The position numbers were made by a program, and so were the translations under genes. Below the pieces are notes generated by a model, which searched no databases, was not told where the DNA came from, and saw nothing but the letters and a program-made list of their open reading frames with translations. A DNA stretch of 64,000 nucleotides, taken from the NCBI GenBank assembly GCA_963667175.2, contig CAXXXF010000014.1, positions 128,001-192,000 on the forward strand, in the 5' to 3' direction. This DNA is from Candidatus Latescibacterota bacterium. Its GTDB lineage: Bacteria > Latescibacterota > UBA2968 > GCA-2709665. This document shows, piece by piece, positions 125 through 49,768 of this stretch. Position 1 is the first letter of the stretch; each line of letters begins with the position of its first letter.

Positions 125-1822
125 GTGGACCTCACGATTGCGGAATTATCCCGCGCAACTGGCAAGAGTGGAAACTACCTCCGTCAGCATATTCATCGAA
201 AGCATCTGAAGGCGCACAGGAAGGGTCGGAGGGTTTGCGTTTCGGTTGACGAGGCGGTGCGTTGGGCGCGTGAACGGGGGCTTCCCCTTGATCTACCGGC
301 AAACGTTGCGATCACGTCTCAACCCAAACAAGATCGTACCGCCCGAATCACAGTGCTTGCGATCCTGGAGTCCGCCGCAGTGGCGAGAAACCTATTTACG
401 CTCCTGCGCCACAGACGCTCTGACGCGTTGGGTCCCTGGGCTGGCGAGCCTGACGGAACCTGGCATAGCAGCGACCTCGGGCAGGAAATATGGCTATTCA
501 CATTCGATGCTCCGCTGACGCGCTGCCAGGAGTTGGTGGATGAGATCTTCGAATCTGGCACGCTGCAGATCGAGGACACTGCAGTCCATTTCGATCTCGA
601 ACCCCACCCAAGATGCCACTGGGCTTATCGAGATGACCGACCACTGAACGACGCTTCTGTGCGCAGCCCGTTCTCAAGACATAGTGCGGAGGTAATTGAG
701 TACTGGAGCTTTGTGCCGGATGTTCGCTCACGGTGGTTGGAGATGCTTAAGACGCAACGCGGTAAGCTTGAGTCCCGACTTAAATCGATACCGTTCCCCC
801 TCGTCCGCGGTCCGGACCGGATCGGAAACCTGATGATCGCCGGCGCCCTGGACGAGATTACGTGTGACTTGTCAGCAAATCGTGATGGAAGCCTCCGGTT
901 CCACTTCGACGCAGTCAATTTACACGAGAAATATCGCGCTGAGATTTGGGCGAGCCATAGCGGGGATGATGTGCTTCGGAAGGAAACACCCGTCACGCCT
1001 GGCCAAACCACTATAGAAGCCACATCCGATGTCGACGATATTGGCTTTGCGGTTTACCGTTCGACTGACGGTCAGTGCATAGATCTGATGCACGTACGTA
1101 TTGTTCTGGAGGTCCAAATTCAAATGTCGGTCGAGTCCGGTCGGACCCTACGCCATCAGATAAAGCAGGGGCCGGTCTTTTGTGTCACTCTTCCAGGCGA
1201 TCACTCCGCAACAACGGTTGAATCAGACCACGAGAGGAGCGGACTCGACAAACGTATCCGACGCCATTGGCTGGAGCAAAAGGCGTACGAACAAGAAACC
1301 ATTGCACGCCGCGACCGCAATTTCGCCCGGTTTGGTCCTGACGAGTTCGACGAAGCCGTCAGCCATTTCATTGGGTTGCTGCGTCAAAACCACGATAATA
1401 ACGACCCGGTATATTTAGCTGACCCGTACTTTATGAATCCGGCCGCAAAATCGAATTGTACAAAGCTATACTTGGAAATGTTCGCAGCGACAAAGGACCG
1501 GGAACTTAGAATTCTCTGCACAGCCAACGAGTGCCTCATAGCATCGCAGTGGTGGTGGTCGGATTTCCCCGATGAGATAACCTCACACATAAGAGTCCGG
1601 TCGTTCAGAAAACCCAATGACAAAAAAGGCGCATTTCACGATCGTTTTCTCATCACGCCCACGCACGAGACTCTCATCACTCACTCTCTAAACGGCTGGG
1701 CGACAGATGGTGTAACGTTTGCGGGCCTTCCATATGAAATCTATCGCAACGAAGCATTACACTTTTGGTCAATGGAAATAGAATCCACGAACACAGGACT
1801 CTTCGTACGGGAAGTCTGCTGA
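125..1822 (+). CDS. N-terminal excisionase/MerR-like HTH fused to a VPA1262-like protein with C-terminal PLD-like nuclease domain
   Basis: N-terminus LTIAELSRATGKS..YLRQHI..KHLKA.RKGRR..V is HTH_17-like. C-terminus has YLADPYF...FHDRFLI...HSLNG, the HDR variant of the HKD/PLD fold. GTG start with AAGGA RBS. Confidence 0.75.
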   Translation: MDLTIAELSRATGKSGNYLRQHIHRKHLKAHRKGRRVCVSVDEAVRWARERGLPLDLPANVAITSQPKQDRTARITVLAILESAAVARNLFTLLRHRRSDALGPWAGEPDGTWHSSDLGQEIWLFTFDAPLTRCQELVDEIFESGTLQIEDTAVHFDLEPHPRCHWAYRDDRPLNDASVRSPFSRHSAEVIEYWSFVPDVRSRWLEMLKTQRGKLESRLKSIPFPLVRGPDRIGNLMIAGALDEITCDLSANRDGSLRFHFDAVNLHEKYRAEIWASHSGDDVLRKETPVTPGQTTIEATSDVDDIGFAVYRSTDGQCIDLMHVRIVLEVQIQMSVESGRTLRHQIKQGPVFCVTLPGDHSATTVESDHERSGLDKRIRRHWLEQKAYEQETIARRDRNFARFGPDEFDEAVSHFIGLLRQNHDNNDPVYLADPYFMNPAAKSNCTKLYLEMFAATKDRELRILCTANECLIASQWWWSDFPDEITSHIRVRSFRKPNDKKGAFHDRFLITPTHETLITHSLNGWATDGVTFAGLPYEIYRNEALHFWSMEIESTNTGLFVREVC

Positions 1823-3963
1823 TGATTAAGAAGGGCCATACAGAATCCTTGCTGCCTGAAGAAGCTAAGGCCGTAGTTTGGCGGATCTTCGGCGAAGGTG
1901 AATCGCCACTGAAGGGCCGGTCAACTTTCAGCCTGATCAAGCCAATGATCGAGAAACACGTCCCTTTCCACAATCAGAATAGTGCAATTGCTGAGATCCG
2001 AGGCTGGTTTGAGTCCTACGGCGACCGCCACTGGCTCAAGTCTGAAATGGGCGAGCAGGTTGCAGTCTTGATCCTGGAGGGAATGAAAAGCGAGCGTTCC
2101 GAGAGCGCTGTCTGGGCGGTCGGCTCTATCGAACCCGATCTGGCCGCACGCATAATACGTGCCGGATGGCGCCCGCAGGAATTCGACTCGTTCGTCGATG
2201 CCACATTCAAGGCATTAAAGAAGCTATGCGATCGAAACAAGGTTCTCGACGCGGCACGCTTTCCACGCTTATCGAATCAGAATTCCAACGACGGGAGGGT
2301 CCCAACCAACGCGGTAGTGCGCCCGGGATGGCTCGCAATCTTCCAGCACCTCGACAGCCATGGTTTTGAACTCGTATACGAGGGTTTACAGCGCACCGCC
2401 GGCAATTTAATCGACCTTATATTCGACATGATGCCAGAGGAATTCGAATCCCTGCTTGGGAGGCTTGGGCACCCTGTAATGCAGGCCCGAGCGGCCAACC
2501 GCGTAATCGGAAGAACTCGAGTAAAGCAAAACCGGAAGACGCTGCAGTGGATCAAAGACGATTCCAGCGACATCCTGGTCGCACTGGCAATTGTCCATAC
2601 GTTAAACGCCGTGAACAGGCTGGATGAAGATCTCAGATACGCCGAACGCAGTAACGCAGAACACTACAATTGGAGTACCGAACTTCGCCCGCCAAGGGAC
2701 GATCTCGATTCAGCTGGAGTCGGCCTGATTACAGGTATTACTGATCGCCTGGCGGATTTCGAACCACTTCGGTGCACGCGGTGGATCGGAGAATTGCTTG
2801 GTACCGCGCCCAACATAATCCATCGAGGGGAAAATAACGAAGTCCCGAAGCGTATTAAGCAGCTTGAAGAGGCGTGTACTAAGTTGCTCGGACGCCTGTT
2901 CCGTGAATCCTGGTCTGAGGAACTGAAAGACGAACTTTGCAACGGTTTGCAGCTGGCAGGTCGAGGGACTTGGTCCCGGCATCTGGCAAGTATTGCCTGG
3001 GAGATCCGAGACGTTAAGCCTGAACGCGCAGCCGAAGTCGCAATAGCGGCTCTTCACGAAGGCGAACGACAGATCGCCGAGCAGATGAAGGAGAATCGAA
3101 TATTCCTGTACTGGAATGACTGGGAATACAGAGCGTGGATCCAAGGTCTTGGCGCTGCGCTATCGCTGTCCAGCGATGAGCTTCACCTGCCGACGTGGCT
3201 TTCGGCACGGTGTCGAGCATTGCCCTTGAGCGTTTGGGACGCAGAGGAGAATCACGAGGTCTTTCATTGCGCCGAGCGGGCTGCTCAGACCTGGTTCCTC
3301 GTTGCGTTCTCTGCGATTCCGTACCTTAATGAACTCGGCCGCTGCGTAGATCCAAATGAAGTCCGGGAACTCGCGGAAATGTGCTGGAACCACTGCGATT
3401 TCGCCAGTCTGTACGTCCGCAGCCAACCGGAAACGTCATTCGTATCAGAGTACGTCGTCCGTCTCGCCGTCGAATATGGCCATCCAAGCGATACCTGGCT
3501 CCTGAATCAGGCACGAAATCGAGGGGTCGGACCTCGCGCCTTGTGGGCCCTGATTCACCAACGAGACCAAAAGATCGCCCGGGACGGCGGAACAGCCGCC
3601 CATTATGGCCAGACGATTACAATTGAGCTTCTTCGAATCGCCGCAGATCGATTTCGCAGTGAAGGGACTTTTGACCTTGAAGAACTACGATTTTGGGGCC
3701 AATTGTGGCTTTTGCTTGGAGCCATCGATGAGTCAGAGCAGACAGCGATAGAGATCAGTTCGTTTCCCGAAAACCTTCTCGACCGTACCGACAATCTGCT
3801 GGTATTGAAGCTGCTCGCCACGGTGGCCAATCAAAGGAGGCTGTTACCCAGATTACGAGACGATGCCACGACGCTCTACCGGCAACTCTGGCCCGGTACG
3901 TACACACCTGCCGAGGAACGTGAGGACCGTACGGAGATTGACGAGCGATTCAATCGAAAGTAA
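1822..3963 (+). CDS. hypothetical 713-aa alpha-helical protein, translationally coupled to the upstream gene
   Basis: Long ORF. In-frame ATG at 1822 overlaps the upstream stop (TGATG). Leu/Ala/Trp-rich helical composition, no catalytic motif recognised. Confidence 0.75.
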   Translation: MIKKGHTESLLPEEAKAVVWRIFGEGESPLKGRSTFSLIKPMIEKHVPFHNQNSAIAEIRGWFESYGDRHWLKSEMGEQVAVLILEGMKSERSESAVWAVGSIEPDLAARIIRAGWRPQEFDSFVDATFKALKKLCDRNKVLDAARFPRLSNQNSNDGRVPTNAVVRPGWLAIFQHLDSHGFELVYEGLQRTAGNLIDLIFDMMPEEFESLLGRLGHPVMQARAANRVIGRTRVKQNRKTLQWIKDDSSDILVALAIVHTLNAVNRLDEDLRYAERSNAEHYNWSTELRPPRDDLDSAGVGLITGITDRLADFEPLRCTRWIGELLGTAPNIIHRGENNEVPKRIKQLEEACTKLLGRLFRESWSEELKDELCNGLQLAGRGTWSRHLASIAWEIRDVKPERAAEVAIAALHEGERQIAEQMKENRIFLYWNDWEYRAWIQGLGAALSLSSDELHLPTWLSARCRALPLSVWDAEENHEVFHCAERAAQTWFLVAFSAIPYLNELGRCVDPNEVRELAEMCWNHCDFASLYVRSQPETSFVSEYVVRLAVEYGHPSDTWLLNQARNRGVGPRALWALIHQRDQKIARDGGTAAHYGQTITIELLRIAADRFRSEGTFDLEELRFWGQLWLLLGAIDESEQTAIEISSFPENLLDRTDNLLVLKLLATVANQRRLLPRLRDDATTLYRQLWPGTYTPAEEREDRTEIDERFNRK

Positions 3964-45165: not shown

Positions 45166-46563
45166 ATGATAATTGGTGCGCCCGGTACGTCGCGTCTGTT
45201 GAGAATAGCGCTGCTGTTCACCGTTGCTTCCATGCTCTCGGGACCGCTGGTGGCTGAGGAAACGGCGCCCAGAGACATGCATCTCAGCCTCGCCGAATGC
45301 ATCGAAATCGCTCTGGGCAACAACTCGGCGATTACGCAATCCCGCTTCTCGCGGGAGATTGCCGTTGCCCGGATCGACCAGAATAGAAACAACTTTCTGC
45401 CGTCGCTGAACAGCAACTATCGCATCTCCAGAAGCGTAACCGGCCCCAGGGAAGGCGCAATCTTCGATGCGACAACGCAGACAATCGTCACCACCCTGGG
45501 CGAAGACCGCGTGGGTGGGTCTCAGTCCGTCGGGTCGAGTCTGAACGTTACCATATTCAACGCCGCCGATTTCGCGAATCTCTCGGCCAGCAAGAAGTCG
45601 GCGCGTGCGGCTGAGTTGGACCTTTCGGTAACCCGGCGTCAGACGACTTTTCTGGTGAAACAGCGATATTTCATCCTTCTCCAACGTATCGAGCAACTGG
45701 AACTGGCGAAGGAGCAGGTGAGCTATTCGGAAGAGGACCTGCGCCGCGAAAACACAATGTATGAAATCGGTTCCTCCACCATCGCCGAGGTTCTGAGCAC
45801 CGAGTCGCAGCTTGCGGGCGATCGCGTGACGCTCATCGCCAGGGAAAACGAAGTTGCCACCGCCCGCGCCGAGCTTGCGTTTTCTCTCGGACTCAGTCCC
45901 GACGTCGTTATTTTTCCGACGGAGAAGACGTTTTCAGTCTCCCCGCCCCCGGTCGCATACCAGGAAACGATGAATCGCGCACTGGCGGGAAGTCCCGAGA
46001 TCCAGGCACAAAAACACAGAATGCTCGCAAGCAGGGATCAGCTGAGAGCCACCAGATACAGCGTTCGCTTTCCGAGCATTAGCGGAAGCGCAGGTTACGG
46101 TTGGCAGTTGAACCGGGGCGAGAATTTCGCGGGCGTGGAGGATCTCTTCGTCAAGAACTACTCTTACAGTGCGGGCATCAGCGTCAGCGTGCCTGTTTTC
46201 AACCGGCTGGCTACGGAAAACAACGTCAAGATCGGAAAATTGGAATACCTGAGGAGCCGGGAGCAACTCGACCAGGCGAAACGTCAGAAAGCCATGGATA
46301 TCAGGCTGTCGTTTCTGAACCTCGAACGGCTTCGCCGGAGCGTCACCGCAAACGAAGCGGCCGTGAAATTCCGCGAAGAAAATTTCAGGCTTCAGGACCA
46401 GAGATACAACCTGGGAGGCGGCACGTTTCTCGAACGCCAGCAGGCGCAACTCCAGCTCTTTTCGGCCCGAAACCAGCTTGTGCAGGACAGATTCCAATAC
46501 CAGATCGAACTGGCTCAGCTGGAACTGCACGTCGGCGGGCCGCTCGTTCAGAACGACGAGTGA
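45166..46563 (+). CDS. TolC family outer membrane efflux protein
   Basis: Signal peptide, LSLAECIEIAL.NN, FLPSL, two OEP repeats, RYNLG..T.LE...AQ. Confidence 0.9.
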   Translation: MIIGAPGTSRLLRIALLFTVASMLSGPLVAEETAPRDMHLSLAECIEIALGNNSAITQSRFSREIAVARIDQNRNNFLPSLNSNYRISRSVTGPREGAIFDATTQTIVTTLGEDRVGGSQSVGSSLNVTIFNAADFANLSASKKSARAAELDLSVTRRQTTFLVKQRYFILLQRIEQLELAKEQVSYSEEDLRRENTMYEIGSSTIAEVLSTESQLAGDRVTLIARENEVATARAELAFSLGLSPDVVIFPTEKTFSVSPPPVAYQETMNRALAGSPEIQAQKHRMLASRDQLRATRYSVRFPSISGSAGYGWQLNRGENFAGVEDLFVKNYSYSAGISVSVPVFNRLATENNVKIGKLEYLRSREQLDQAKRQKAMDIRLSFLNLERLRRSVTANEAAVKFREENFRLQDQRYNLGGGTFLERQQAQLQLFSARNQLVQDRFQYQIELAQLELHVGGPLVQNDE

Positions 46564-46606
46564 ACTGAAGTTGCGCCACACACTTACTCGACCCCCGGAG
46601 GACGTC

Positions 46607-47077
46607 ATGCACATCCGTTGTCGAACCCGCGCGGTCGCCGTCTCGGTCGCCGTCACCGCGTTATGCGTCTCAGCGGATCCGGCCCGGGCGCAGATGAAAA
46701 CCAGAGACTTCCTGTACTCCAAAAAGCTCTACGGTGCGCTGTCGCTGGGTGCGAGCATCTGGTTTTTCACCGAGGCGCACGCAGCCAGGAAAGACGCAAA
46801 CGACGCGTACGAACGGTACAGAACGACCACTTCCTCCCAGACGGCGGGAGACCTCTACAGCGAGAGCAAATCCGGCGATACCAGGGCCGCCATCATGTTC
46901 GGGCTCGGCGTCGGAACCCTGGCGTACTCGGTCCACCTCTTCCTTTCGGATGAAGACGAGGAACTTCCGCCGCCGGAAAAGCGGAACAACCTGGTCGAAA
47001 TGAAAGGCGTAGGCCTGCGCGTCAACGGCGACCTCAAAACCAGGGGCGTCCGTTTGAACCTCAACAAGGCGTTTTGA
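46607..47077 (+). CDS. exported/membrane hypothetical protein
   Basis: GGAGG+ATG 46607, signal peptide ending A-R-A, two hydrophobic helices around ANDAYERY, C-terminal Phe. Confidence 0.7.
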   Translation: MHIRCRTRAVAVSVAVTALCVSADPARAQMKTRDFLYSKKLYGALSLGASIWFFTEAHAARKDANDAYERYRTTTSSQTAGDLYSESKSGDTRAAIMFGLGVGTLAYSVHLFLSDEDEELPPPEKRNNLVEMKGVGLRVNGDLKTRGVRLNLNKAF

Positions 47078-47288
47078 CTCTCCTCTCACCGCGCATTCCT
47101 TCCAGTCCACTGTATTTTCCTTCGCTCGTGAATTGGGATGTATTGGATTCCATGCTCAGTTCCCCTTTTGTGAATAGATGTAAATATTCCTATCTCTTGT
47201 ACGCGCACCATTTCATCCCTTGCAGTCCAGTCCATTGTCTCAAGCATAGGCCAATCCGCCGACCGATCGCCGCTTTGAATGGAATCGT

Positions 47289-47573
47289 ATGTTCGATTGG
47301 GATCCAGCCAAAGCAGCGAGCAATCTACGGAAGCACAACGTCAGCTTCGAACTTGCCGCCACGGTGTTCGTGGATCCACTTTCGAAGTCGATTCCCGACC
47401 AGGATCAAAGCGAGTTCGAGGAGCGGTGGATAACCGTGGGCATCGCTCGAAACGGTCAGTTGTTGGTCGTATCCCACACCTATGTCGACAGCAGCGGGGA
47501 GGTGTCCGTGCGTCTCATTTCAGCTCGCGCAGCCACCCGTAAAGAGCGACGCCAATACGAGACCGACGAATGA
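47289..47573 (+). CDS. brnT: BrnT family ribonuclease toxin
   Basis: FDWDPAKAASNLRKHNVSFE.A..VF.DP...EERWITVG...LLVVSHT...RLISARAAT.KER..YE. Confidence 0.93.
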   Translation: MFDWDPAKAASNLRKHNVSFELAATVFVDPLSKSIPDQDQSEFEERWITVGIARNGQLLVVSHTYVDSSGEVSVRLISARAATRKERRQYETDE

Positions 47574-48856
47574 AGACCGAATACGACTTTTCAAAGGGCA
47601 AGCGCGGCAGGTTTTTCAGCTTAGACGCTAAGATGAGCTTACCCACCTCGGATGAGAAGGTTGTATGGGTTGGTCCCGACGGTCCGCTTGGCGGGTTCAT
47701 TGACCAGCAGACGAGGAAGACCCTCGATGCCTATCGCGAGCATCCACATCTGGTAACCGAGCATTCCAACCAGGAATACGACACCGCCCACGGAGGATAT
47801 ACTCATCGGCAACTCTTCGAACTCGTGCAGAACAGCGCGGATGCCCTGCTTGACGCTCCGAAAGGAAAGAGCATCCTGATCCGCCTGACGAGACGTTTCC
47901 TCTACTGCGCCGACGACGGAGATCCCATCGACGAGGACGGTGTCGTAGGGCTCATGTTCGACCGCCTGTCGAGCAAACGGAACACCGCGGCCATCGGCAG
48001 GTTCGGGAAGGGTTTCAAATCGGTCTTGAGGATAACGGATGCTCCAGAGTTCTACAGCCGGTCCGGGTCGTTTTGGTTCGATAAGACGCGTTCGGAGCGA
48101 CAAATAGCTGAGGTCGCGCAGGCCGAGCGATACCCTGTGCTGCGTTTGCCCGAACCCATCGATCCCTCCCATGAAAGGGATTCCGACGAGGAAATGCAGG
48201 AACTGATGAGTTGGGCGACGAACATCGTTCGACTGCCGCTGAAGCCCGGCGCGCATGATGGCCTCGCCCAACAAATCAGGGAGTTTCCACCCGAATTTCT
48301 GCTTTTCGTCGATCATGTCCGTTACCTGACCCTTGAATGTGAAGGAGTCTCCCGAAGTTTCACGTTGCAGCATCGGAAGGAGGAGTTCCATCTCGATACC
48401 GGCGACGAGACTTCGCGTTGGCGGCTTTTCAACACAACCCATACCCTTTCTCCCGATGCGCAAAGCGACTGGGGCTTGAACGAAGACAGCGGCAACGTGC
48501 CGGTCTCGTGGGCGGCGCCGCTGGATCGACTGGATCGCCCCGGACATTTCTGGGCGTTCTTCCCGACACATACCGCGAGTCTCGTGGCGGGTATTCTGAA
48601 TGCGCCGTGGAAAACAAACGAAGATCGTCAGAATCTGCTGCCCGGGCCGTACAACAATGAACTGATCGAAACGGCGGCACGACTGATTGCCGACGAATTA
48701 CCCCGACTCTCGACGCAGGAAGACCCCGCTCGCCACCTGGATGCCCTCCCCCGCAGACAAGAGGCAGGTGACTCGGAACAGAGTGTTCTCCTTCGCGACC
48801 GGCTGTTTGACCATATGCAGGAACGAGAGATCGTCCCCGATCAGCAAGGTAGATAG
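47570..48856 (+). pseudogene. BrnA-type antitoxin N-terminal peptide fused to sacsin-like GHKL ATPase domain; C-terminally truncated
   Basis: MKTEYDFSKGKRGRFF..DAK..LP, then ELVQNSADA, DDGDP, IGRFGKGFKS, AFFPT, LNAPW...DRQ. TAG at 48854-48856 with the frame open a further ~25 codons up to a MITE end. Confidence 0.8.
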
Positions 48857-48923
48857 TGCACCGTCGAACAACTCATGCATCCGACTCGCGAATTAATGGA
48901 CATCACAGACACGGCTTCCTTAG

Positions 48924-48937
48924 CAGTCCGTTGATAA
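48924..48937. mobile_element. single terminal repeat of MITE family C
   Basis: TTAG-CAGTCCGTTGATAA, matching the ends at 12353 and 57837. Confidence 0.5.
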
Positions 48938-49007
48938 GGCACGCCCTCCTGCAATCTGCCGTGTTTAAATTCGGACGGGACGGGATGAGGCGGGGACAGG
49001 GTTTTCA

Positions 49008-49169
49008 ATGCGCCTGCTTGCTCGCATCCTTCAACTTGCCGGGCTGATCTATATGGGTTTCGGCCTGTTTGTCGGCCTCTACGAAGAGGACATCGGCCGG
49101 GAGGTGCGCTTTGCGATCATCGGCGGTCTGATCTTCACGGCCGGCTGGCTGCTGCAGAAACGCGCGTAA
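49008..49169 (+). CDS. small two-TM membrane protein (53 aa, below the ORF-track cutoff)
   Basis: MRLLARILQLAGLIYMGFGLFVGLYEEDIGREVRFAIIGGLIFTAGWLLQKRA*, host-like codon usage. Confidence 0.65.
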   Translation: MRLLARILQLAGLIYMGFGLFVGLYEEDIGREVRFAIIGGLIFTAGWLLQKRA

Positions 49170-49239
49170 ACGTGAACAGGGCTGTACCTGACACCCGTTG
49201 GCTATTCGAGCATCGGGCGGCGGCCCCGTCGTAAATCGC

Positions 49240-49268
49240 TTGACAAAACCGGCGCCGTCTGCTAATCT
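49240..49268 (+). promoter_or_regulatory. sigma70-type promoter
   Basis: TTGACA-17 nt-TAATCT with extended TGn. Confidence 0.65.
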
Positions 49269-49321
49269 GAACGGACCGACGCTATCCGCACCCGGCGAAA
49301 CCCGAAGAGGAGACCGATTGC

Positions 49322-49768
49322 GTGGCCAGACAACGGCGCAGACAGATGTCGGTTCTGTTCATACCCGACGACGGATCGCGCACCTTTGTGTTCAAGCTCG
49401 GTACCTGGCCGCTCAGAGCGGCGGCCGGCGCGATTCTCCTGCTGCTCGTCATGCTGATCCTGGAATTCGCGTTCATCTGGAAGATTCAGGAGTGGAGACA
49501 GTCGGCGCAGACCCTGAAGGCAGAAAACAGCCGGCTGAATGAGGAAGTTGCACGCGTGGAGGAACTCGCGCTTACCCTGAAGCGAATCCAGGGAACCAAT
49601 CAGAAACTGCGTCAGATGCTGTTGCCTGACGCGGGGCCGGCGCAGGCTTCCTTCACGAATGCGGTTTCTTCCGGACGCCGGGAGGAGAACGGAAAGCTGG
49701 GCGCGCCCGTCGCCAGCGCGGTCAAGGGCGCTGCCGGGGCACCCCGCGATTCCGTGAATTCCAGATGA
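49322..49768 (+). CDS. TM + coiled-coil protein resembling the N-terminus of bactofilin-associated M23 peptidases
   Basis: SVLFIPDDGS.T..F, TM helix, LKAENSRL coiled coil. No HxxxD/HxH M23 motifs. GAGGAG RBS. Confidence 0.7.
   Translation: MARQRRRQMSVLFIPDDGSRTFVFKLGTWPLRAAAGAILLLLVMLILEFAFIWKIQEWRQSAQTLKAENSRLNEEVARVEELALTLKRIQGTNQKLRQMLLPDAGPAQASFTNAVSSGRREENGKLGAPVASAVKGAAGAPRDSVNSR

Follow-up and report, generated by a model that had tools for sequence, protein, structure and literature searches.

A stretch of 64,000 nucleotides from a Candidatus Latescibacterota bacterium (contig CAXXXF010000014.1, positions 128,001 to 192,000; here called the window) contains a two-gene locus in which a toxin gene of the BrnT family is followed by a gene for a sacsin/Tiamat-type GHKL ATPase headed by an antitoxin-derived peptide. 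Both genes lie on the + strand, and all coordinates are those of the window unless another source is given. The type II toxin-antitoxin pair BrnT/BrnA (PF04365/PF14384) has its prototype in Brucella abortus. The first gene, brnT (47289-47573), is intact and encodes 94 aa that match the PF04365 BrnT_toxin profile over its whole length (positions 1-77 of 77; E 9.3e-26, 90.4 bits with a cut-off of 34.5, and 89.8 bits in the genome-wide scan), as well as the 'toxin' of PDB entry 7vd7 (E 3.6e-17). Among the BrnT proteins linked to Tiamat-like genes (n = 37), nine columns are invariant and 19 nearly so. The brnT product is a predicted RNase toxin, as assigned at family level.

The TGA of brnT (47571-47573) shares bases with the ATG of the second gene in an ATGA overlap (47570-47573), as a previous sequence-only reading of this locus had described. 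The second open reading frame (ORF; 47570-48856) encodes 428 aa, has an N-terminus that reads MKTEYDFSKGKRGRF and stops at a TAG (48854-48856). Its end had been placed earlier at 48937, which corresponds to a TGATAA 25 in-frame codons further on. Three parts can be distinguished in the product: the antitoxin-derived N-terminal tag (codons 1-25, 47570-47644; MKTEYDFSKGKRGRFFSLDAKMSLP), delimited by hhalign and codon conservation; a variable linker (codons 26-32, 47645-47665), with no conserved columns between F15 and W33 in alignments A1 and A3; and a GHKL ATPase of the Hsp90/MORC/sacsin type with its transducer (codons 33-428, 47666-48853). The motifs ELVQNSADA, DDGDP and IGRFGKGFKS are present, and the ORF matches NCBIfam NF047352 (P_loop_sacsin; E 1.5e-16, residues 80-162) and, as its best PADLOC model, TmtA (PDLC03964; E 6.8e-53, residues 43-423, profile positions 12-400 of 1538), which bears out the proposal that an EYDFS-type N-terminus runs in frame into a sacsin-like ATPase. 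The second gene is a defence-type sacsin/Tiamat GHKL ATPase.

No PF14384 (BrnA) match was found anywhere in the window, in agreement with the reported absence of a separate brnA; the genome has a single match, at C14:109835-110008, which precedes the start of the window by about 18 kb. PF14384 matched neither the 428-aa ORF nor its first 50 residues at E up to 1. A Pfam search with residues 1-50 returned nothing, residues 1-30 had no usable match in the ESM Atlas, and a word-based homologue search with residues 1-40 among short proteins gave no candidate. The relation of the N-terminus to BrnA, which the sequence-only reading had suggested checking with BrnA models, was thus not recovered by the PF14384 profile, but it was recovered by alignment with the free partners of BrnT, as follows.

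Among the 30 brnT loci that scored best within the phylum, the pattern [EH]Y[DN][FL]x...RG is found near the N-terminus of 29 partners, whatever comes after it, in line with the claim that EYDFS-type N-termini are typical of BrnT partners. As a mark of BrnT partners, the segment is thus defined from these loci rather than by a curated family description. These partners include BrnA-type ribbon-helix-helix (RHH) proteins, a 'VNxALR' type without a Pfam family, and large proteins; PF14384 was matched by 10 of the 26 small ones. The other three brnT loci of the window genome fit the rule less well, with two partners that have no such motif (L005 and L006) and one reading PEYRRGDL. At G000:C15:538826-542011 (L007), a 66-aa toxin fragment adjoins a 75-aa partner containing PEYRRGDLGPGVRGKY.

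Comparison by hhalign of 37 Tiamat-like N-termini with 26 free partners gave Prob 96.9 and E 1.7e-10 over 18 columns; this set leaves out L005, L006 and L125, which have no motif, the incomplete L131 and three large partners. The same N-termini were also compared with 22 RHH antitoxins that adjoin the closest metagenomic BrnTs and are 66 aa long (one was cut at 64), which gave Prob 99.1 and E 5.5e-19, with columns 1-30 aligned to columns 1-30; this E value is partly built in because these antitoxins were picked by regular expression for the motif plus P[VI][HYR]L. The match ends where the free antitoxins start their RHH strand (PVHLD/PVYLD), indicating that the grafted part is the segment preceding the RHH, and the RHH part of the free relatives, from PVHLD/PVYLD on, has no counterpart in the fusion protein. 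The RHH of BrnA is C-terminal according to the pertinent passage of PMC11980606. These alignments indicate homology of the tag with the N-terminal ~25-30 residues of the free RHH antitoxins that partner BrnT, and the antitoxin origin proposed for the peptide was upheld.

The tag is under purifying selection at the protein level. In 56 sequences, the entropy of codon positions 1 and 2 is ~0 at E4, Y5, D6, F7, S8, R12, G13 and F15, and that of the third positions of these codons is 0.95-1.65 bits (0.3 at Y5). Residues Y5, F7 and G13 are invariant, E4, D6, S8, R12 and F15 are kept at 90% or more, and residues 16-32 vary freely. Within the genus, all 10 pairs gave a Nei-Gojobori ratio of nonsynonymous to synonymous substitution (dN/dS) of 0.18-0.25 for brnT and, over codons 1-426, of 0.14-0.26, also where the two truncated copies took part; being pairwise, this ratio cannot isolate the time since truncation.

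The fusion and its tie to brnT extend far beyond this genome. A HMMER search against 1.84 billion representatives detected 2813 relatives at E up to 0.001. Most of the ~1540-aa homologues begin their alignment at query residue 30-33, indicating that residues 1 to ~25 are an add-on; an M[KR]xEYDFS start was found in 7 of the best 150 clusters, and cluster P0004 carries the variant VYDFS after a 14-residue leader. A scan of genome_contigs, with one genome per species, gave 283 relatives, which were ranked by their match to the first 428 residues, and the best 80 were kept. The peptide is present in 55 of these 80 loci, and in all 55 the start codon lies in an NTGA (ATGA in 50, GTGA in three, TTGA in one and CTGA in one). 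A BrnT profile match lies directly upstream in 50 of the 55 tagged loci, end to end in 39, without the first seven positions in two and partial in nine; none was detected in the other five (L041, L047, L061, L082 and L089). Only one of the 25 untagged loci (L079) has brnT upstream, together with a different N-extension, so that tag and toxin gene co-occur almost exclusively. A chance fusion was ruled out by the 55 of 80 occurrence and the codon-level conservation.

The fetched loci come from Latescibacterota, Gemmatimonadota, Alpha- and Gammaproteobacteria, Acidobacteriota, Binatia and Spirochaetia. Phyla are intermixed in a tree of the ATPase part (a quick maximum-likelihood tree with SH-aLRT support only), indicating that the module spreads horizontally. 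The peptide label requires four changes on this tree, compared with 21.6 for shuffled labels. No relative was found in viral contigs; 20 plasmid records matched, all at <60% identity, and the tag was not seen in the best 15 of these 20, which start at query residue >=33. A scan of metagenome contigs anchored on BrnT recovered mostly free brnTA pairs, with fusions, judged by eye, in two of 80 (L132 and L134).

Further variants were observed among these loci. In L069 (2623-4257), brnT and the Tiamat-like gene are in one frame (…ERRQYETGP-MKQEYDFS…), forming a natural single-chain toxin-tag-ATPase, which is itself frameshifted near residue 404. Where no brnT was detected next to the tag, a HicB-like antitoxin (L041:2586-2840) and a hicA-hicB pair (L089:2252-2646) were found upstream. 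In L079 (153-3390), from a SAR202 metagenome-assembled genome (MAG), brnT is followed by a Tiamat-like ORF with an N-extension of ~90 aa containing DDEIDTTDIPEVRDWSGAVRGLF; this extension looks BrnA/DUF4415-like by eye, its hhalign comparison with free partners was not significant (Prob 0.8, E 0.072), and it matched no Pfam or NCBIfam family. Twelve untagged Chloroflexota loci (L074, L077, L078, L080, L083, L087, L088, L091, L094, L097, L099 and L100) have strongly basic N-tails of 30-60 residues, with K/R runs such as MAKRKKRNRKQ…, and no toxin gene upstream in the subset checked. Untagged Actinomycetota Tiamat-like genes in L096 and L098 (1679-2773 in both) are preceded by a gene for a 365-aa HTH_3 + Peptidase_M78 (ImmA/IrrE-like) protein, a regulator type that is common in defence islands. 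In the window genome, ORFs of 1196 and 355 aa (L002, G000:C3:197339-197599; L003, G000:C4:123761-124072) match only the C-terminal ~100 positions of TmtA and may be other proteins with a DUF3883-type nuclease domain.

Within the genus, the locus is an island at a fixed site. The DNA of positions 46400-49400 was searched in 41 related genomes (the window genome, G000, included), and four other same-genus genomes carried the island at the same position, with 79-81% nucleotide identity. Eight same-genus genomes have an empty site, with both flanks 199-353 bp apart; of the remaining ones, one shows the left flank only, at a contig end, and one has no match. Homology with the empty site of G012 stops at 47075 and restarts at 48968, which gives an island extent of 47076-48967, the left end and the region upstream of brnT occupying 47076-47288. 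Three of the four other island-bearing genomes contain an ORF of 1505-1506 aa with the same N-terminus directly after brnT, so the search for homologues with the same peptide and an upstream brnT did find full-length forms. In the fourth (G007), the gene is interrupted by another TAG, at codon 432, and has an internal deletion further on. One of the full-length copies, that of G003 (L019:8100-8110), has AGG in place of the ATG of brnT; no ATG, GTG or TTG lies in frame a short way upstream, and this brnT is otherwise open.

A premature TAG, at codon 429, and a deletion have reduced the window copy to a truncated remnant. Where this TAG stands, K-L is read in the three full-length proteins of the genus. 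The TAG is followed by a decayed in-frame remnant of the gene (48857-48937), closed by the TGATAA, which aligns to G013 up to ~48915; ~60 bases beyond the TAG are still alignable (RELMDITDTAS, compared with RELTDASDKAP in G013). The deletion scar and the island right end follow at 48938-48967. About 3.2 kb, comprising the variable middle region and the helicase, are missing, and the full-length copies are ~1,080 codons longer. Contigs of run X1 tile the whole stretch, record 10 of X2, from a second study, bridges the junction of brnT and the second ORF, and record 28 of X4, also from the second study, spans 48785-49054, with the TAG and the deletion junction, with 0 differences. An assembly chimera was ruled out by these contigs of two studies across both junctions. 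The fusion is therefore neither confined to this contig, being present in four other genomes of the genus and in the 55 loci from many phyla, nor a chimeric join, two of the outcomes that the sequence-only reading had named as speaking against it.

In the 1505-aa relative, the TmtA profile match is confined to the N-terminal third (residues 41-516 at most), and the C-terminus contains a superfamily 2 (SF2) helicase (ResIII/DEAD at 1085-1264, Helicase_C at 1372-1469). It lacks one defining feature of canonical Tiamat, as no PD-(D/E)xK (NOV_C/DUF3883) nuclease was found by profile search; no DUF3684 match was found with Pfam at E up to 0.01. Type III-A of the Tiamat/Tiamat-like classification is outlined, in the relevant part of the preprint, as an ATPase with a DUF3684-type core and a UvrB-like SF2 helicase that replaces the nuclease (bioRxiv 10.64898/2026.09.30.754977). 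The full-length copies share with this type the N-terminal sacsin/Hsp90-type GHKL ATPase with transducer, the long variable middle and the SF2 helicase in the place of the nuclease, and the protein may belong to Tiamat-like type III-A, by an assignment made from the text of the preprint rather than from its hidden Markov models. The three full-length genus copies have protein identities of 68-94% in the ATPase region, 46-82% at residues ~400-850 and 74-98% in the helicase region; the fast-evolving middle would suit a variable recognition region.

An AlphaFold2 model of the 428-aa ORF, built with a 46-row alignment, had a mean pLDDT of 81.3 and a pTM of 0.82, and its fold starts at ~residue 39 and closes with a helix at 403-416. 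Folded without BrnT, residues 1-6 and 8-29 stayed at pLDDT <50. The ATPase is confidently predicted to fold, and the tag is predicted to be disordered on its own. The top Foldseek matches of the model were Hsp90, GRP94, MORC2/3, GyrB and sacsin SR1.

Tagged copies decay in a recurrent way. A stop occurs within the stretch examined in 15 of the 55 tagged loci, and in nine of these (L023, L030-L032, L049, L054, L061, L066 and L069), as well as in the window, the first stop is at codons 418-432, just past the last helix of the ATPase module. Several breaks are in-frame nonsense codons with homology going on behind them; others are deletions joining residues ~420-650 to the last 35-140 residues. 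The clustering past residue 416 is not due to the query, because later breaks were equally findable; breaks before ~416 would have been ranked out of the sample. A mutational hot spot may explain the pile-up, or else selection, either through toxin addiction or for a clean domain end. Eleven of the 15 loci whose large gene is broken keep brnT complete or almost so.

The same design was found with another toxin. Three Dehalococcoidia MAGs (L090:2566-7236, L093:2533-7194 and L095:2524-7185) have a RelE/ParE toxin gene of family TIGR02683 (E 4e-37 to 9e-38) followed by a Tiamat-like gene, whose N-terminus corresponds to positions 2-52 of the 89 of the TIGR02684/PF21716 antidote (E 5e-10 to 2e-8); the antidote's C-terminal half is missing from the fusions. 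As in the BrnT version, a toxin gene precedes the N-terminal part of its antidote placed on the same ATPase family, but the toxin fold family and the tag of this TIGR02683/TIGR02684 (upstrm_HI1419/dnstrm_HI1420) pairing are different, and it is absent from the window. These three loci form one clade (98 SH-aLRT) inside the untagged Chloroflexota group, apart from the tagged clade, and their origin is independent, since a toxin of the RelE/ParE fold family and its tag are unrelated to BrnT and EYDFS. BrnT-partner sequences were also found on other large proteins. In L114 (3-1460, - strand), the gene after brnT encodes a PbeA-like protein with PLD and SF2 helicase (PADLOC E 1.1e-108) that bears a partner-type N-terminus. 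The L130 protein (1766-3250; at least 495 aa), with weak matches to PD-(D/E)xK and PDC-S26, begins with an EYDFS peptide. L110 has a 213-aa brnT partner that matched no family.

In the explanation that we favour, and regard as rather likely, the locus in the window is the decayed form of a two-gene module that is conserved and spreads horizontally, and in which BrnT could serve as a releasable effector. Gene 1 provides the BrnT RNase toxin, and gene 2, when intact, a Tiamat-like protein of ~1505 residues composed of the ~25-residue tag, the GHKL ATPase with transducer, the fast-evolving middle and the SF2 helicase. The RHH domain of the antitoxin, used for DNA binding and dimerisation, has thus been swapped for a large, probably dimeric, defence nucleoside triphosphatase (NTPase). 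The tag would dock BrnT on the ATPase and silence it, and silencing by the tag can be considered probable. A phage cue at the sensor/helicase part, or the disabling of that part, would then free or activate BrnT, which would cleave RNA and arrest growth. The effector role is suggested for BrnT because the Tiamat-like type found here is without the usual nuclease; that BrnT is the releasable effector of a nuclease-less sensor is put forward tentatively. Since sensor and helicase are gone from the window copy, BrnT and the 428-aa tag-ATPase most likely survive there as a toxin-antitoxin-like addiction pair that no longer defends.

A broader reading can be offered, with similar reserve, in which short N-terminal segments of type II antitoxins are portable docking tags that bacteria repeatedly moved to large NTPases of defence, thereby making a small RNase toxin the releasable effector of a sensor, and truncated copies could persist because the tag-ATPase stub is still required to silence the toxin. 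At least three cases lie behind it: the BrnA tag on Tiamat-like proteins, the BrnT-partner motif on the PbeA-like protein, and the TIGR02684 half on Tiamat-like proteins.

Several points weigh against BrnT as a silenced effector of this module. The complex prediction of BrnT with residues 1-45, a check that the sequence-only reading had called for, did score above the best control (0.32 compared with 0.00), with runs agreeing in at least 82% of contacts and a partner pLDDT of at least 49, but the support it gives for binding is weak. Of 80 solved complexes, 58 attained this mark, as did two of 110 mismatched pairs; at a score of 0.60 or under, it was attained by only seven of those 80 and by both mismatches. 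A sequence search of the PDB found no BrnT-antitoxin complex with the EYDFS motif, and the EYDFS segment is a putative BrnT-binding element. Both sets of free partners were selected for carrying the motif and are therefore biased, as are the 80 loci, chosen because they matched the first 428 residues best. Among the 55 tagged loci, 14 have a brnT that is partial or undetected; the large gene is open in 10 of these 14, so that retention of the large protein does not depend on BrnT. The whole or nearly whole brnT beside broken large genes fits plain addiction as well as an effector role.

Addiction alone is accordingly the alternative that survives best. The tagged protein would simply be the antitoxin of BrnT, and the toxin would only enforce retention, with no sensing or antiphage output; the helicase-ATPase would defend, if at all, on its own. 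It accounts equally well for the decay pattern: the tag-ATPase part is kept together with brnT in most broken copies, the first stops pile up where that part ends, the 10 loci just mentioned combine an open large gene with a degraded or missing brnT, as expected if the toxin is dispensable, and a dN/dS of ~0.2 holds in pairs with truncated copies. However, the Tiamat-like type found here has no nuclease effector of its own, and three different pairings of toxin and antitoxin tag on defence NTPases suggest more than hitch-hiking. Addiction and effector roles can also coexist, and we regard addiction as the whole explanation as unlikely.

Another alternative is that the tag recruits BrnT, as an active RNase, to the RNA that the helicase-ATPase engages, forming a targeted RNase complex instead of holding a latent toxin. 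The toxin gene comes first and is translationally coupled through the ATGA, the tag persists although the RHH repressor domain was lost, and combinations of helicase and RNase near Tiamat-like genes are mentioned in part of the preprint (bioRxiv 10.64898/2026.09.30.754977), all of which agree with such recruitment. However, the motif-bearing protein sits in the antitoxin position in free BrnTA pairs, and uninhibited BrnT would be expected to harm the cell, which makes this alternative improbable. That the peptide is an inert leftover, from a deletion by which an adjacent ATPase gene acquired the 5' end of brnA or from an assembly chimera, has in its favour the pseudogene-like state of the window copy itself but is scarcely credible, given the full or near invariance of the key residues across 56 sequences of many phyla with saturated synonymous change, the recurrence of the fusion in most of the 80 loci, and the confirmation of its joins by contigs of two studies.

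The logic of the favoured module resembles, by analogy only, that of several known systems. In PARIS (AriA/AriB), Hachiman (HamA/HamB) and PrrC with EcoprrI, a toxic effector is held on an NTPase or partner until a phage trigger; CapRel(SJ46) is a fused toxin-antitoxin sensor, and PsyrTA has a helicase-type antitoxin. To our knowledge, none of these systems uses a transplanted segment of a type II antitoxin as a tether. Compared with BrnT/BrnA, the layout is the same, with the toxin gene first, a partner that overlaps the toxin stop, and a partner start of the form M-K/R-x-E-Y-D-F-S...R-G-K/R-F; it differs in that the BrnA-type partner has an RHH, and a ~1480-aa GHKL ATPase-helicase that leaves PF14384 unmatched is found here instead. 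BrnT-BrnA fusions with RHH or helix-turn-helix domains were reported by Gerdes 2025, and the portion on these fusions does not contain the present arrangement (PMC11980606).

Compared with Tiamat/Tiamat-like systems, the difference lies in the antitoxin-derived N-terminal tag and the toxin gene directly upstream. Tiamat effectors can come in trans from a neighbouring gene, and helicases, methyltransferases and nucleases are the neighbours named in the corresponding sections of the preprint; neither BrnT nor DUF497 occurs in its main text, supplements aside (bioRxiv 10.64898/2026.09.30.754977). BrnT-like toxin genes are found directly upstream of RtcR-associated CoCoNuT type IV restriction systems (eLife 2024, PMC11090510), where the defence proteins are different and the passage concerned names no antitoxin tag on the downstream protein. 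In the literature searched on Tiamat and BrnT, supplements excluded, no description of brnT with a tagged Tiamat-like gene was found.

For annotation, ORFs of this kind should not be left as plain 'ATP-binding protein' or 'hypothetical', nor the upstream brnT as an orphan toxin. The tag is short and easily mutated, full-length natural genes are available in several genomes of the same genus, and the RelE/ParE version provides a built-in independent replicate, while the recurrent truncation just past the ATPase domain can be regarded as a natural experiment on what toxin silencing needs. If the proposed mechanism is real, a tag of ~25 residues replaces a DNA-binding domain and tethers a toxin to a sensor ATPase-helicase. 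It would give nuclease-less Tiamat-like proteins, which are without a known output, an effector, and would show, in one testable design, a route by which type II toxins are recruited into antiphage immunity.

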